From Halobacteroidaceae bacterium (GTDB lineage Bacteria; Bacillota; Halanaerobiia; B1SED10-174): a DNA stretch of 64,000 nucleotides. The stretch covers positions 8,574 to 72,573 of the forward strand of contig PWGV01000183.1 of assembly GCA_003554585.1 (NCBI GenBank). Direction: 5' to 3'. Under the pieces are notes generated by a model. That model searched no databases. It was given only the letters and a program-made list of their open reading frames with translations, and was not told the origin of the DNA. Both the position numbers and the translations under genes were made by a program. Of the stretch, positions 33,990-61,370 are shown one piece after another (the stretch's first letter is position 1; every line of letters begins with the position of its first letter).

Positions 33990-36276
33990 TGTAATTCTTA
34001 AAATCAAGACCGAAATTCAAGACCTTTGGTGGGATGATTTTTTGAGATTCTTGATAAGCAGGACTACATCCTTTTGCCTGTTGCTGAAATTTCTAGGTAT
34101 CTGGACCTGCAACCCCGTTATTTTCGCGAAGAAAATCCCCTTTATATTGAACATGTTCCCAGTAGCAGGAGTGCCAGGATTGACTTAAAATTGGGTATTT
34201 ATGAAGGGTACCCTGAACTATCAGCCCAACCTCCAGTTCAGCACGAGGGGGACTTTTTTGTTTCCTCTTCTTTAATCGAAAGCCTTACCGGGGGCAAATT
34301 AGCTGGAACCCAAGGCGACAGGAGGTAACAATTTTCCCGAGTGGAGAATTAGTTCCGTCCGGGCCTTTACTTCGATTTCTGGAGAGGCCAGCCCGGGAGA
34401 TACAGTTACTCTTTATGTTAATGAACGCCGGGTTGACGAAGTATATGTTTTCAGAGGAGAACAGTCCTATAAATTCGAGGAAGTTTCTTTGATTTCCAAC
34501 CGCATTAACACTATCAGGATTGAAATCAGGAGGTTTGACGGGGAAATTGTGGAGATAGAAAAGCAAATACCAGGAAGCCCCAATATCCTGGAAGAAGGAG
34601 TTTGGGAATACCTTGTTTTCCTTGGAAGGTATGGAGGAAAAGGTGGAAGAGATTATAAAGGTGATATTGTTGGACAGGAAATGAAATTTGCAATTACCGA
34701 TCGGGTTACGGGAACCTGGGAATTGCTGGGTTAAGGGATTTTGATTCGAGCGGTGAGCCCAAGGATTTTGTTGAGGTTGGTAATGTACTAGGACTTGCTT
34801 TATGGCCCTTTGATGCTCCCCTGCTTTTTTCAGTTGATTGGCTTACTGGTGGAATATTCGGGGAACTGGCCCATGGATTCAGGTCAGCAATGCTTATTAC
34901 ACTGGAAAAAGGCTATTTTGAACTGGGTTTCTCTTATGTCCCTCCCCCAGTAACGGTGGGAGTTAGAGAAGATTCCGGGGTTAATGTTTGGACAACCCTG
35001 GATTATGAATTATCTCCTGATTATGGTTTATCCTTAACTGGTGAACTATATCGACCCCTTTGGGATTTGGAATATAAAACCGGCCAGAAGGTAGAGACAA
35101 CGGTCAGTTATCGAGACGGCAGAAGATTATCCCTGGCAGTTACGGGAGCTCTGGGGCATCGTTTTTATATTGATAAAGATACAAGCGGAAAGGATCGTTA
35201 CAACGATATTATCGACCTGGATTTAATTTTTGAACACAGGTCCTTTACACCAGGAGGTTCGACCCGGAGCAAAATAGGTTTTCTGGGGGGATACCTTTAT
35301 CCCGGCGACCATCACCCGTATTTATTATCCAATGTTATTTTCGACCTGGGTTTCACCAGGAACCTTACTGATGATTTTCTGGTAGGAGGCAATGCCAGTA
35401 CTTCTGCTTTTTGGTTGGGAACGAAATTTGAGGAACTGAAAGTAAGAGCTGATGCCAGAGCGAGAATTACGGCAAGCGATAATTTAATAATTACGGGGAC
35501 GGGGTTACTCGAGGGAGAGGGAGAGCAGGAAAATGATGATCTGGTGGAAGCGGGAAAAATAGAACTGGGGATTTCAGCTACCTATTATTTTTCCCGTCAG
35601 TTTTATACCACGGGGGAGTTAAAATGTACCCGTTTACCCCAAACCGAGGATGCTTTTTACACCAGCAAGGGTACAGTTTTTTATAATAACCCGGATTTGA
35701 ATCTTAGATTGTCCCTGCGAGGGGAATACCTGACTCCAACAAATTTCAGGGAAGTGCCTCAAATAAAAGCAGGGATAACCGCAACAAAAACTTTTTCATC
35801 CGGCTTGGGTATTTCTCTGAATGCTGCTCGAACTTACCGTTCCGCAACAGCCGTAGCACCTGAATATACTGTTGGATTTTCAATAAACCAGACAATTGGC
35901 TTTGCCGGCGGGAATATTTTCGGTCAGAGATACCCTTCAGGCACAGACCACGTTTCTTTTATCGCAGGTGTTGTTTACCTTGATGAAAATGGGAATGGCA
36001 TTCGGGATAAAGGAGAGCCATTACTTTCCGATATACCCATTCTTCTTGATCGAAGAAGGATCAGGACGGATGAGGAGGGAGGGTTCTTTTTTGAAAGGAT
36101 CAGACCTGGATTATATGAAGTGGGTATTGATCCTGCCCAGCTATCTGGAGAATACCAGATAATTACTCCGAAGAAGGTTGTTCAGATCCGAGAAAATGAG
36201 AATATTTTCCTTGAGTTCGGTGTAACTAAGTCGGAGTAAAAAGGAAAAAGTACTAACAAAAAATAGAGGATGAAAT

Positions 36277-56649: not shown

Positions 56650-57858
56650 TTACCGATAGAGGCCTTCTTCATCGTACCTGGCCACTTGGGCTACATCCTT
56701 GTCACCTCGGCCTGAGAGGTTTACTATTATTGTTTTATCAGGTGGTAGGGTTTTTGCAAGATGCAGGGCATAGGCTACAGCATGGGCGCTTTCCAGGGCA
56801 GGAATAATTCCTTCTTCCCGGCTCAAAAGCCGGAAGGTTTCCAGTGCTTCGCGATCGGTTACGCTTTCGTAACTGATTCTTCTAGTATCTCTTAAGTAGG
56901 AGTGTTCCGGGCCTACTCCCGGGTAATCTAAACCGGGGGCAATGGAATGAACGGGAAGGGGTTCGCCTTTTTCATCCTGGAGGGTGTAGCATTTAAAACC
57001 ATGAATTATACCTGGAGAACCTCTGCTGATAGAAGCAGCGTGCTGATTTGTATCCAGGCCTCCACCGGCGGGTTCAACTCCAATTATCGCTACCTTCTCG
57101 TCCTTGAGGAAAGGATGGAATAGTCCGATGGCGTTGCTGCCTCCTCCCACACAGGCTACAAGGTAATCGGGGAGTTTCCCGGTAGCTTCCATAACTTGCT
57201 CCCGGGCTTCTCTTCCTATTATACTCTGGAAATCCCTGACCATCGTGGGATAGGGGTGAGGCCCTACTGCTGAACCCAGCAGATAGAAACTGTTTTCAAA
57301 GTCCCCGGCATACGTATCCAAAGCCTTATCAACGGCATCTTTTAGAGTTCTGGTTCCAGTTTCTACAGAGACCACTTCCGCGCCCAATAACTCCATTCGG
57401 AAAACGTTCATCTGCTGGCGAATTACATCTTCAGCCCCCATGAATATTGTGCATTCAAGGTCAAAAAAGCTTGCTACAGTTGCCGTGGCTACTCCATGCT
57501 GACCGGCCCCTGTTTCAGCTATCAATCTTTTTTTGCCCAGATCCCGGGCCAGGAGAGCCTGCCCCATGGCGTTATTAATTTTGTGTGAGCCGGTGTGGTT
57601 TAAATCTTCTCGTTTGAGGAAAATTTTTGCTCCTCCAGCATACTCCGATAGTCTTTCCGCGAAATAAAGGGGATTGGGGCGGCCCACAAAATGTTTTAAA
57701 TGAAAGGCCAGTTCCTCCTGGAAAGTTGGTTGCTCCCGCAATCTCTGGAAGGCATCGGTTAATTCCTGCAGGGGTTTTTCCAGGGGAGGGGGGACAAACC
57801 TGCCTCCGTAATCTCCAAAAAAACCTTCTCTTGTCAGTTCTTCCTTTTTAGTTGCCAT
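56650..57858 (-). CDS. trpB: Tryptophan synthase beta chain (TrpB1-type), stand-alone
   Basis: 402 aa. [13 protein letters not shown] lysine [17 protein letters not shown]. No trpA adjacent. Confidence 0.9.
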
Positions 57859-57881
57859 TATAATTCCTCCTTTTTGGGTTG

Positions 57882-57913
57882 AAAATAAAAAAACTCCGGC
57901 GAAAACCGGAGTT
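57882..57913 (-). terminator. Attenuator terminator in the trpB leader
   Basis: Minus strand AAACTCCGG-TTTTCG-CCGGAGTTT followed by TTTTTATTTT. It ends about 20 nt before the trpB SD AGGAGG. Confidence 0.75.
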
Positions 57914-57961
57914 TAAACCAATAAAAACAAATATAAAATTCCCGGATTCCTTCCTCTTTAT

Positions 57962-58042
57962 TTACCCAGATGAAATTAGACGTGGTGTTGCGCCACGCCA
58001 GGACCAGGTATTAAAAAGGATAAGACCGGAAACCTTAGCCAT
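57962..58042 (-). CDS. Candidate trp leader peptide MAKVSGLILFNTWSWRGATPRLISSG
   Basis: 26 codons plus TAA. GAGGG SD 9 nt upstream of the ATG. Two Trp codons (W13, W15). Lies between a consensus promoter and the terminator. Confidence 0.55.
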   Translation of the reverse strand: MAKVSGLILFNTWSWRGATPRLISSG

Positions 58043-58075
58043 TTTTCTGCCCTCACTTATTTTGTAATACAGATC

Positions 58076-58104
58076 ATTATATACTCTTGTTAAAGCGTTG
58101 TCAA
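58076..58104 (-). promoter_or_regulatory. Sigma-70/SigA-type promoter TTGACA-N17-TATAAT
   Basis: Perfect -35 and -10 hexamers with a 17-nt spacer on the minus strand, about 30 nt upstream of the leader ORF. Confidence 0.7.
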
Positions 58105-58175
58105 GGTAAAGAAGGTGGTTTTTTTGGAAAAACGCATTGAAAGGGGCAAATGTCGGTTTTAACTAAATTTCTAGC

Positions 58176-59084
58176 TTATTCAACCCTTTCTTCCATTATC
58201 CCCCTCAGTATTCCAGGGAAGTCAGTAATAATTCCGTGGACTCCTGCTTCCAAAAACCGCTCCATTCTGTCAGGCTCATTTATGGTCCAGAGGAAGATGG
58301 GGTAACCCCCGGCTCTTGATCCCGCCAAAAAGGGGGCGGTGAGAATAGGGAAGCGATTTAGCCGGGGAGGGACAAAAAGGCCTTCAAAATCCCAGTTCAT
58401 TAGCCAGGCAAGTCCCAAATGGGCAGAATAGAAAAAACGGCGGATTTCTTTCCAGGAAGCAGCCGTTGGAACCTCAGGCATAATGCGGCGAAAATGCTCA
58501 ATTGTATGGCTGTTCATGGTTCCAACAAAGACCCGGTTTTCTGCATTGGCTTCTTCAATAACCCGGGCGACAATTTCTGCGCTCGCAATCCCCGGCCGCT
58601 TTATTTCTATCATTACGGGGATGTCGGGGAAGGTTTCCAGTACTTCATCCAGCATGGGAACCTTTATCCCAATTCCCCGGAAAGGATAATATCCTTCCGG
58701 AGTTGAAAAATCGTAGCCGGCGTCCAGATCCTGGATTTCTTCCCGGGTAAAAGAAGAGACAAATCCTTCCCCGTCAGTGGTTCGATCAACAGTCCTGTCG
58801 TGAATTACTGCTGGATGAAAATCTTCGGTAAGCCAGATATCAAGTTCCAGGATATTCGCTCCTTTTTCTATAGCCCGGGAGAAGGCCTTCAGGGTATTCT
58901 CGGGATAGTTTCCAGAAGCTCCTCTGTGAGCTATGTTTAAGGGGGGATCGAAAAGGGAAAAAATCTCCAGATCAGTGTAGGGGTCTGGAAAGTAAACGCT
59001 TTTTGCCATCTGAAACGTGTTGATTAGAACCAAAATCCCAACTATGGTAATAATGGTTTTAAAGGTATTGCCGAACCTCCGCAA
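58176..59084 (-). CDS. Glycerophosphodiester phosphodiesterase (membrane-anchored)
   Basis: IAHRGASGNYPENT. N-terminal TM helix. TTG start after GAGGAGGG. Confidence 0.85.
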   Translation of the reverse strand: MRRFGNTFKTIITIVGILVLINTFQMAKSVYFPDPYTDLEIFSLFDPPLNIAHRGASGNYPENTLKAFSRAIEKGANILELDIWLTEDFHPAVIHDRTVDRTTDGEGFVSSFTREEIQDLDAGYDFSTPEGYYPFRGIGIKVPMLDEVLETFPDIPVMIEIKRPGIASAEIVARVIEEANAENRVFVGTMNSHTIEHFRRIMPEVPTAASWKEIRRFFYSAHLGLAWLMNWDFEGLFVPPRLNRFPILTAPFLAGSRAGGYPIFLWTINEPDRMERFLEAGVHGIITDFPGILRGIMEERVE

Positions 59085-59729: not shown

Positions 59730-60158
59730 GAGTAAAACCTTTTTTGGTAAAATAACCCAATTGGGTAATGGAGAAAGTGAAATTTAAAAAAGGAATTAGG
59801 CGGCTTAAGATTAAATAATAATATAAACCTTCTTAATGAAGAATATTTTTGAGCAAAGAAATTTTACCCAGCCAGATTTTTAGCCATAGTTCCATTTTTA
59901 ACAGGTGAACTTTCTAATAAGCATTTTTGCTTTTTTGTTTAAATGGAAAGTATTTCCGTAAAAAAAAGTTTAAAAAGTGAATCCTAAAAATATAAACACA
60001 AAAATTATTTTTTGAGGTGCAAAAAGACCGATTACAAAATATTTAGTAGCCCAATTACTTGATTTTTATTGGCTGCGTGGGGGAGTTTTTGGTCATTAAT
60101 TGCATCTTTTTATATTGTCAGAGCTACGGATAATCTAAAGGATTGGGGTGGAAGAGCT

Positions 60159-61370
60159 TTGGGTGGGCAGGAACAAAAACAATTAAAAATCTTTACCCTT
60201 GGCAAGTTTCAGGTTTTTACAGGGGAAGAAAACCTGACAAAAAAATATCCCAAAAGCAGGAGACCCTGGCTTTTATTTCAGTTTCTATTAACCAATGCTG
60301 GGCAATCATTGTCTTCAGAAATTGTTGTTGGAACTCTCTGGCCGGCCACCAATTATGAAAATCCGCAGCATTCATTACGAAATCTTGTATACCGGTTACG
60401 TCAAATGTTGAAGGATGAAGGAAACGGAGATAGGTACATAATTCAAACCCAGGGTAATTATTCCTTTAATACCCGGTCTAATTACTGGTGTGATTTTGAA
60501 GAACTGGAGAAACTTTTAGAACGTGCTTTTTCTTTAAAGGATAAGGATCCCCAAAAAATAAAGTTACTCGAAAAAGCATATCAACTTTACGGTGGGGAGT
60601 TTCTTCCCTCCAGACCCTACGAGGAATGGACAGTGAACCTTCGGCTTTACTGCCAGAGGATTTTTCTTAAGGTAGTAGTTGAACTAAACCGCCTCTACGA
60701 GGAAAAGAACCAGTGGAAAAAAACAATAGCCCTGTGTGAAAAAGCCCTTGAATTTGAACCTTTTGAAGAAAATCTTCACTGGAGTTATGTGCAGTCTCTG
60801 ATAAAAACTGATCAGAAGGCCCGAGCAAAAAACCACTACCATCAGACCCACGCTCTTTTTCAAAAAGAGTTGGGTGTTAGTCTGGGGTTTGATATTGATG
60901 AGATGATTAATAAACATAATAACTTTGAGCCGAAAAATTCATCTTCAACATGGGGCGATTTCCAGGAAATTTTAGAGGAAAAAGAAGAGGATAAAGGGGC
61001 ATTCATTTGCGATGGCGAAAATTTCAGGATGATATACCAGCTTGAAGAAAGGCGAGCGGAGAGAAACATAAGAAAATCAAGCCTTGCTTCCTTACAACTA
61101 ATTGCCCCTAAGGGGAAGAAATTACCAGAAGCAGAATTGGATGAAAAAAGCCGGATATTGCAGGGGACTCTTTTGAATTGTCTGAGAAGGGGTGATGTTA
61201 TCTTTCCCAATAAGCCGGGCGAATTTCTCCTTTTACTGGTTGATGTTCCTCCGGATAAGGTTGATAAAGTTTTAAACAGGATAGCCTCCAAATATTACGA
61301 GAATAGTCCAGATGATGAAGTGAGAATTAATGTAAGGCATCGCCCGTTATTACAAGGAGGAACAATTTAA
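60159..61370 (+). CDS. SARP-like (wHTH+BTAD) regulator with degenerate GGDEF domain retaining RxxD (paralog copy 2, intact)
   Basis: LKIFTLGKFQV..LRNLVYRLRQML (wHTH). YQLYGGEFLP..W (BTAD). C-terminal RRGD-VIFPN-KPGEFLLLLV. The ORF opens at 60069, but by comparison with the paralogs the probable start is TTG 60159 after GGTGGAAG. Confidence 0.75.
   Translation: MGGQEQKQLKIFTLGKFQVFTGEENLTKKYPKSRRPWLLFQFLLTNAGQSLSSEIVVGTLWPATNYENPQHSLRNLVYRLRQMLKDEGNGDRYIIQTQGNYSFNTRSNYWCDFEELEKLLERAFSLKDKDPQKIKLLEKAYQLYGGEFLPSRPYEEWTVNLRLYCQRIFLKVVVELNRLYEEKNQWKKTIALCEKALEFEPFEENLHWSYVQSLIKTDQKARAKNHYHQTHALFQKELGVSLGFDIDEMINKHNNFEPKNSSSTWGDFQEILEEKEEDKGAFICDGENFRMIYQLEERRAERNIRKSSLASLQLIAPKGKKLPEAELDEKSRILQGTLLNCLRRGDVIFPNKPGEFLLLLVDVPPDKVDKVLNRIASKYYENSPDDEVRINVRHRPLLQGGTI

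Follow-up and report, generated by a model that had tools for sequence, protein, structure and literature searches.

A probable leader-peptide tryptophan attenuator upstream of a stand-alone trpB gene in soda-lake Halanaerobiales-like bacteria

In the enterobacterial trpL leader (Trp_leader, RF00513), a constitutive promoter precedes a 14-codon open reading frame (ORF) with two Trp codons followed by Arg, four RNA segments that pair as 1:2, 2:3 or 3:4, and an intrinsic terminator that precedes the first trp gene; in the E. coli attenuator the antiterminator is the less stable structure and wins kinetically. Here we describe a leader of comparable organization upstream of a stand-alone trpB gene in a 64-kb stretch of DNA (64,000 nucleotides; hereafter the window, to which all coordinates refer) from a Halobacteroidaceae bacterium (GenBank assembly GCA_003554585.1, contig PWGV01000183.1, positions 8,574 to 72,573), with both the leader and trpB on the minus strand. 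This leader is probably a transcription attenuator of the ribosome-mediated (leader-peptide) kind, by which expression of trpB is tied to how much charged tRNA-Trp is available. It resembles trpL in its promoter, predicted to be constitutive, its short ORF with two Trp codons and then Arg, its four segments with the three predicted alternative pairings and its intrinsic terminator; set against the generally known E. coli energies, its terminator is likewise the stabler structure, which implies kinetic control. Unlike trpL, its ORF has 26 codons, a Ser codon separates its Trp codons, a predicted anti-antiterminator hairpin encloses the entire ORF with its start and stop codons, it controls a single stand-alone trpB of a Bacillota-like anaerobe, and it has no match to the Trp_leader model at E<=10.

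Several other systems offer partial parallels. Classical Trp attenuators have been predicted in Corynebacterium and Streptomyces, some before trpB-led operons such as C. diphtheriae trpB1EDGC and trpB2A (PMC1262725). These likewise combine a leader peptide with repeated UGG codons, a G+C-rich terminator that has a U-tract, and an overlapping antiterminator, but they display double or triple consecutive UGG codons, belong to another phylum and have no detectable sequence relationship to the window leader, which appears to be an independent invention relative to them. Among the Firmicutes, His leader-peptide attenuators are predicted in lineages without T-box or HisR control, namely the Bacillus cereus group, Peptostreptococcaceae and Erysipelotrichales (PMC9413887). 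These too were found by alignment of upstream regions and have no match to the proteobacterial Rfam model; unlike the window leader, they possess 3-5 consecutive regulatory codons and a peptide located just upstream of the structures rather than embedded in them. An initial annotation of the window, made from its letters alone, had proposed leader-peptide Trp attenuation and contrasted it with the TRAP or T-box elements usual in Firmicutes; leader-peptide attenuators had, however, already been predicted there for his operons. Finally, ribosome-mediated attenuators of the antibiotic response in B. subtilis, namely bmrB-bmrCD (PMC4191407), vmlR (PMC9226507) and tlrB/yxjB (PMC6851288), illustrate how translation of a leader ORF controls an intrinsic terminator despite uncoupling, typically with polymerase pausing. 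Their stall is triggered by an antibiotic and not, as posited here, by amino-acid codons.

Leader anatomy and conservation in soda-lake relatives

We confirmed the promoter, Shine-Dalgarno (SD) sequence, 26-codon W-S-W ORF, spacer, terminator and trpB SD and ATG that had been listed in the initial annotation, all of them in place on the minus strand (Table 1). The promoter is the sole perfect promoter-like site in the 3 kb scanned, with transcription predicted to start near 58069 (-). The ORF carries its Trp codons at positions 13 (W13, 58006-58004) and 15 (W15, 58000-57998) on either side of Ser14, and a 47-nt spacer separates its stop codon from the terminator. The terminator RNA reads AAACUCCGGU-UUUC-GCCGGAGUUU and continues into a U-run, UUUUUUUAUU, that extends to 57881 (U7AU4; DNA TTTTTTTATTTT); the 10-bp stem with its U7 run is 32 nt ahead of the trpB ATG. 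Two or more Trp codons would occur by chance in 25 codons with a frequency that we roughly estimate at ~0.03-0.04. Across both strands of the 64 kb, only four ATG-started short ORFs with an SD-like motif encode W-x-W or WW; of the three besides the leader, one was examined (35533-35562), and it falls within a 449-aa ORF. A search of the window with the leader (nhmmer) returned no second copy.

Table 1. Leader and trpB features in the window (RNA letters for RNA elements).
Feature	Coordinates	Strand	Description
Sigma-70-type promoter	58104-58076	-	TTGACA 58104-58099, 17-nt spacer, TATAAT 58081-58076; 12/12 consensus
Leader SD	58056-58050	-	GTGAGGG; GAGG-to-ATG gap 8 nt; read from sequence
Leader ORF	58042-57962	-	26 codons plus TAA (57964-57962); peptide MAKVSGLILFNTWSWRGATPRLISSG
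Segment 1 (P2 5' strand)	58037-58022	-	UAAGGUUUCCGG plus UCUU; codons 2-7; first CCGG box; helices of the minimum free energy (MFE) structure
Upper hairpin	58020-57963	-	P3, P4, P5
P3	58020-58012 x 57960-57952	-	UCCUUUUUA x UAAAGAGGA; pyrimidine run x purine run; changes pairing-compatible
P4	58010-58004 x 57969-57963	-	UACCUGG x CUGGGUA; invariant; first Trp codon x stop-codon region
P5	57999-57993 x 57985-57979	-	GGCGUGG x CCACGUC; stem invariant, loop variable
Segment 2	57950-57941	-	GGAAUCCGG(G); invariant island in variable spacer; pairs with segment 1 or 3
Segment 3	57910-57901	-	UCCGGUUUUC; 3' half of terminator 5' arm plus loop; CTCCGGTTT invariant
Intrinsic terminator hairpin	57914-57891	-	DNA arms AAACTCCGGT/GCCGGAGTTT; 10 bp, 5 G-C; -14 kcal/mol
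trpB	SD 57870-57866; CDS 57858-56650	-	SD GGAGG; 402 aa; TIGR00263 593 bits (cut-off 392)

Two other candidate features of this region were set aside. A promoter-like site at 57885-57857 is rejected as a trpB promoter, its -10 element overlapping the trpB start codon. An antisense, TTG-started 62-aa ORF (57879-58067, +) is open in the window and in two relatives (L081, L082) but interrupted by a stop in a third (L001) and lacks a conserved start; its openness probably just reflects conservation of the sense strand.

Relatives of the locus were gathered from three sources. The reference genomes scanned with TrpB gave one close locus (L001, 89% identical), from a Halobacteroidaceae metagenome-assembled genome of soda-lake sediment, every other match being at most 71% identical. 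A protein database supplied two more close TrpBs (93% and 84%; contigs L081 and L082-L085), and a metagenome scan with the leader-peptide pattern [ITS][LP]FNTWSW added L086 and L087. That scan gave 77 raw matches, 3 of them real, all trpB leaders from the same soda-lake samples, and so did not extend the family beyond soda-lake trpB leaders; nhmmer searches of 80 reference-genome trpB loci with the leader matched L001 alone. In sum, there are six distinct leaders, spread over four lineages of uncultured Halanaerobiales-like bacteria of soda lakes with TrpBs that are 84-93% identical, and all leader-bearing relatives come from soda-lake-type samples. The gene order rubrerythrin - glycerophosphodiester phosphodiesterase (GDPD) - leader - trpB is common to all, while the genes after trpB vary by lineage. 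The probable attenuator is previously uncatalogued and, as far as the collections show, confined to a narrow soda-lake Halanaerobiales-like clade. The 93%-identical lineage additionally features a ~750-nt insertion between GDPD and the leader promoter (L081:1116-1840; L086:1-260), absent from the window, L001 and L082, with a long open frame that matches the phosphoribosyltransferase family PF00156 (41 bits) and has no obvious ATG, GTG or TTG start.

The initial annotation had made conservation of the leader ORF and its Trp codons a test of its proposal, and both Trp codons and the ORF are indeed retained in all six variants despite near-saturated synonymous sites in the flanking genes. No variant departs from the others in its promoter hexamers or their spacing, its SD block, ATG, 26-codon ORF length, two UGG codons or TAA. 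The leader peptides read MAKVSGLILFNTWSWRGATPRLISSG, MVKSSGSTLFNTWSWRGVTPRLISSG, MANGSGLILFNTWSWRGEKPRLISSG and MFSNTVFSPFNTWSWRGSKPRPISSG; the only substitution within W-S-W is synonymous, TCC -> TCT at Ser14. The alignment shows the 81-nt ORF to be free of indels, with three indel positions in the ~50-nt spacer after the stop codon. The block AAGTGAGG.CAGA.A.ATG is invariant in the seven aligned sequences, its predicted partner (the P1 3' strand) being variable and interrupted by indels, and GGAAUCCGG, CTCCGGTTT and the terminator are also kept in the variants. In trpB itself, the more divergent pairs use identical codons for 44-49% of conserved residues, and the window and L081 do so for 70%, indicating that synonymous sites are close to saturated. 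By comparison, codons 10-17 and 20-26 of the leader together show two substitutions across the six variants, the Ser14 change and a nonsynonymous CTA -> CCA at codon 22, while codons 2-9 and 18-19 change freely and mostly nonsynonymously; at the protein level, the blocks FNTWSWRG and PR.ISSG are conserved and the remainder is variable. The frozen core against nearly saturated trpB synonymous sites points to selection on the RNA sequence, the reading frame and the UGG codons, and not on the peptide. RNA-level constraint on the paired segments is what an attenuator predicts; the invariant AAUUUCAU falls outside that prediction.

These conservation data bear on two readings that give the leader product a role of its own. 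The invariance of FNTWSWRG and PR.ISSG as amino acids could mark a nascent arrest peptide that senses free Trp in the exit tunnel in the manner of TnaC, which likewise features a conserved Trp and Pro in a ~25-residue leader. This we regard as very unlikely: the invariance is at the nucleotide level, with no specific support for a peptide function, and the leader ORF has no Pro-stop end. TnaC-type stalling induces catabolic genes on excess Trp by blocking Rho, but the gene here is biosynthetic or for salvage, stands behind an intrinsic terminator, and its orthologues are T-box-controlled by uncharged tRNA. Alternatively, the promoter, short ORF and terminator might constitute an independent gene for a small RNA (sRNA) or a 26-aa peptide acting in trans, with trpB expressed by constitutive leak-through or the attenuator RNA serving a dual role. 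Its own strong promoter and efficient-looking terminator, together with nucleotide conservation beyond what the helices need, would fit this, and there is precedent in the attenuator-derived sRNAs and leader peptides that act in trans, rnTrpL of Sinorhizobium and peTrpL (PMC6614838, PMC7298713). We nevertheless find it improbable, because the element is always linked to trpB at a fixed distance, trpB lacks another promoter, the metagenome scan recovered the peptide motif upstream of trpB only, the peptide is unconserved outside its two blocks, and a trans role would add to attenuation rather than replace it.

Predicted alternative pairings and the geometry of a putative ribosome stall

The fold of the leader RNA reaches -64.9 kcal/mol (z = -4.08; none of 200 dinucleotide shuffles as good), with the first ~130 nt forming a long hairpin that encloses the whole ORF. 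In this hairpin, codons 2-7 pair with the post-stop segment GGAAUCCGGGAAUUUU to form P2a and P2b, and the two Trp codons belong to the 5' sides of P4 and P5. All six variants are predicted to form this P2-P5 hairpin, followed by the terminator. In the 7-sequence alignment, 86% of the pair cells are standard pairs, as against 41-59% with slid partners. Double-sided changes affect five pairs, among them U-G -> A-U in P2a and A-U -> G-C in the L082 terminator, and one compensatory change in P2 involves segment 1 (alignment columns 48/137); 5 of 500 shuffles match the observed covariation score. The covariation should be read as supportive but weak, since the helices were drawn from the window's own sequence and the core does not vary.

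Superimposed on this fold are four CCGG boxes that define segments 1-4: the first at ORF nt 13-16, the second within the spacer, and the third and fourth in the 5' and 3' arms of the terminator. The initial annotation had noted that UCCGGGAAUUU can pair both with AGGUUUCCGG and with the terminator 5' arm, and had called for mutually exclusive structures; both pairings exist, and folding yields the full set of 1:2, 2:3 and 3:4 pairings through the invariant CCGG boxes. The 1:2 pairing reaches -21.4 kcal/mol in the window (-11 to -18 elsewhere) and beats shuffled spacers (window p = 0.002, i.e., 0.2% as good; L081/L086 p = 0.004-0.012), and every variant has its 3:4 terminator at -14 kcal/mol. 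With the 5' part masked, the MFE structure in all four lineages pairs GGAA-U-CCGG(G) with (U)CCGG-U-UUUC, the putative 2:3 antiterminator. Both of its strands are invariant islands in a variable spacer, an invariance that leaves no covariation to test, and in L082, where the terminator loop is one U shorter, its register is kept.

From these pairings, we posit the following switch, whose read-through and dependence on Trp are predictions of the model. The strong constitutive promoter would start a ~190-nt leader transcript, in which the P2-P5 hairpin would act as an anti-antiterminator by holding GGAAUCCGG of segment 2 against segment 1, where the ORF begins. The 3:4 terminator would then be free to form and transcription would end ahead of trpB, which would be the default state. 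If the ORF is translated while Trp is plentiful, the ribosome would pass W13-S14-W15, reach the UAA and leave, allowing the hairpin to re-zip and termination to follow. If Trp-tRNA is scarce, the ribosome would likely stall with UGG13 or UGG15 in the A site, cover ORF nt ~18/21 to 49/55, keep P2b, P3, P4 and P5 open and abut the CCGG core of P2a; the freed segment 2 could then pair with UCCGGUUUUC, so that the terminator fails to nucleate and the polymerase enters trpB. The model predicts that changing GGAAUCCGG to GGAAUGGCC loses read-through, and that a compensatory UCCGG change in segment 3 regains it.

We next weigh the geometry of the posited stall, assuming a 28-nt ribosome footprint that reaches from -12 to +15 relative to the P site. 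A ribosome stalled at UGG13 would span ORF nt ~21-49 and one stalled at UGG15 ~27-55, each codon being in the A site; both would mask the 5' strands of P3, P4 and P5, and the one at W13 also P2b. Several points weigh against the attenuator here. The stalled footprint ends 2-5 nt short of the P2a CCGG core (ORF nt 13-16), the Trp codons being ~20 nt 3' of that core, unlike those of E. coli, which lie inside segment 1. When the footprint is the sole constraint, RNAfold retains P2a as well as the terminator, and the antiterminator emerged only after removal of the RNA 5' of the ribosome. As the core is left uncovered, the model needs steric exclusion at the trailing edge of the ribosome: the 12-bp P2a of the window would depend on it, while the 4 bp of P2a left in L082 would fall apart. 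At -9.7 to -12.1 kcal/mol, the 2:3 antiterminator is no better than in dinucleotide-shuffled spacers (p = 0.05-0.23), and with the terminator the stronger of the two, it could prevail only kinetically. A polymerase that outruns the ribosome, as is described in one account of B. subtilis (PMC13323073), adds a further demand, since the mechanism would then need a polymerase pause; none was identified, a NusG-type TTNTTT in the U-rich spacer of the window being, by eye, not conserved in L001 or L082. The conservation pattern also leaves a residue: the core codons are frozen even synonymously and the unpaired AAUUUCAU is invariant, so that the helices explain only part of it, while ORF substitutions outside the core are mostly nonsynonymous and nothing shows selection on the peptide. 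Lastly, six variants from one narrow clade form the whole comparison, and the covariation statistics are weak.

The other end of the ORF departs from trpL as well. A ribosome at the stop codon reaches ~nt 90, while GGAAUCCGG occupies nt 92-100; it would therefore abut segment 2 rather than cover it as in E. coli, and with segment 2 unmasked, termination when Trp is in excess would have to come from the ribosome leaving and the hairpin closing again. These differences in geometry are the main reason that our confidence is not higher. On balance, the comparative and structural evidence supports the leader-peptide Trp attenuation proposed in the initial annotation, and those of its own proposed tests that were run, on conservation of the ORF and on the fit of other riboswitch models, did not refute it.

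Other tryptophan sensors and the T-boxes of related trpB genes

No known Trp-responsive element accounts for the leader. In the whole window no Rfam family attains its gathering score, and at E<=10 with permissive filters neither a T-box (RF00230) nor Trp_leader appears in 57500-58500; the loci of the relatives likewise match no Rfam model of this kind. The weak Rfam matches that do occur in the region (rimP, PyrR, GcvB and others) align to the terminator only and were rejected. The window leader lacks the T-box core GGUGGNACC, a Stem I and a specifier loop. TRAP would require 9-11 (G/U)AG triplets spaced 2-3 nt apart, but the window leader has 3 and that of L082 has 1, the longest properly spaced chain being 1. 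A natural tryptophan riboswitch was likewise sought in the literature, and the search surfaced no paper describing one. The initial annotation had held out a T-box or other riboswitch model as a competitor; none in Rfam fits the leader.

The same results bear on the possibility that the structured RNA is a riboswitch-like direct sensor of Trp, tRNA-Trp or an RNA-binding protein, whose ligand would stabilize or melt P2-P5 and thereby select antiterminator or terminator, the ORF being incidental or secondary. Its attraction lies in the ~60-nt core, near-invariant at synonymous sites while those of trpB are near-saturated, and in the unpaired AAUUUCAU. The hairpin loop and outer helices vary with pairing kept, amino-acid changes elsewhere in the ORF are unconstrained, and the fold is strong (z = -4.1). 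Yet there is no Rfam match, T-box core or TRAP array, and the literature search surfaced no natural Trp riboswitch; the UGG triplets are buried in P4 and P5 instead of being displayed in a loop like a T-box specifier, and the RNA is a plain stack of helices that lacks a multi-helix junction and shows no evident pocket. Direct sensing also leaves the invariant and well-spaced SD, the ATG, the indel-free 26-codon frame and the conserved stop unexplained. We accordingly judge it unlikely, though the least so of the alternatives considered. A more speculative version, to which we give a low probability, takes the frozen core (UUUAAUACCUGGUCCUGGCGUGGC ... CCACGUCNAAUUUCAUCUGGGUAA) to be a T-box replacement that is either a direct sensor of Trp or tRNA-Trp or a dual attenuator and trans-acting sRNA, with the ORF as a second input or incidental; if the core were to bind Trp directly, it would be a natural tryptophan riboswitch. 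As to AAUUUCAU itself (57978-57971, codons 22-24), it is unpaired in every predicted fold, and its sole candidate partner is the GGAAU of segment 2 (5 bp).

Returning to the leader-peptide attenuator, the trpB genes outside the clade provide its closest regulatory counterpart. Among the 20 next-closest trpB loci scanned (L002-L022, 61-71% identity), 12 possess a T-box in the same type of Rfam search (RF00230, 100-126 bits) that ends 50-150 nt before trpB (e.g., L004:300-543, L007:2710-2948 and L009:2576-2823), with a UGG specifier in L004, the sole T-box inspected. All 12 T-box trpB genes are stand-alone, with no recognizable trpA immediately downstream and with downstream ORFs that, by eye, are of diverse, unrelated kinds. 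The stand-alone state of the window trpB, called an orphan in the initial annotation, is therefore ordinary, and what stands out is the exchanged sensor. The TrpB subfamily looks widespread and is typically encoded by a stand-alone gene under T-box control, specific for Trp in the case inspected and possibly for indole salvage. With a T-box on the orthologous trpB, a sensor of Trp-tRNA charging is the expected type of control. The T-box and the window leader share their position before the same trpB subfamily, uncharged tRNA-Trp as the presumed signal and antitermination at an intrinsic terminator as the output; they differ in that the T-box RNA reads the tRNA without a ribosome, while the window leader would sense it via a translating ribosome. 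Judged from the distribution of the two elements, the window clade has apparently replaced the T-box by a leader-peptide attenuator before its stand-alone trpB. At one of the outgroup loci (L009, Clostridiaceae bacterium 35-E11), an array of clustered regularly interspaced short palindromic repeats (CRISPR; RF01315, at least 16 repeats; 902-2348, -) ends ~230 nt upstream of the trpB T-box.

Gene neighbourhood and significance of the leader

The window trpB stands alone between an upstream, same-strand GDPD gene and a downstream, convergent gene for a Cof-type HAD hydrolase; an exact look-up of its TrpB sequence returned no record. Beside the rubrerythrin-GDPD-trpB block lies a gene (60069-61370, +) for a 433-aa protein that combines a Trans_reg_C winged-helix domain with a BTAD domain, a SARP-like regulator of a type commoner in actinomycetes. 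Farther away, three tandem paralogous SIS_2 proteins of ~250 aa (PF13580; 47368-49652, -) are encoded in a row; next come an amidohydrolase, a protein whose N-terminus is ceramidase-like, four phosphotransferase system (PTS) components of the mannose family and a GntR regulator (to 55514). This region looks like a cluster for the utilization of amino sugars or glycated substrates.

The leader is a compact element of ~190 nt, whose ORF, buried in a predicted anti-antiterminator, and four CCGG boxes set it apart from the E. coli paradigm. Although it offers no new principle, it is a useful test of how much coupling such switches need, and it would add a Trp example to the few leader-peptide attenuators predicted in Firmicutes. 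If our reading is true, one sensor of tRNA charging would have been swapped for another on the same gene, from an RNA-only T-box to a ribosome-based leader peptide, and this in Bacillota-like anaerobes, where amino-acid genes rarely come under leader-peptide control and the coupling of polymerase and ribosome is considered loose.

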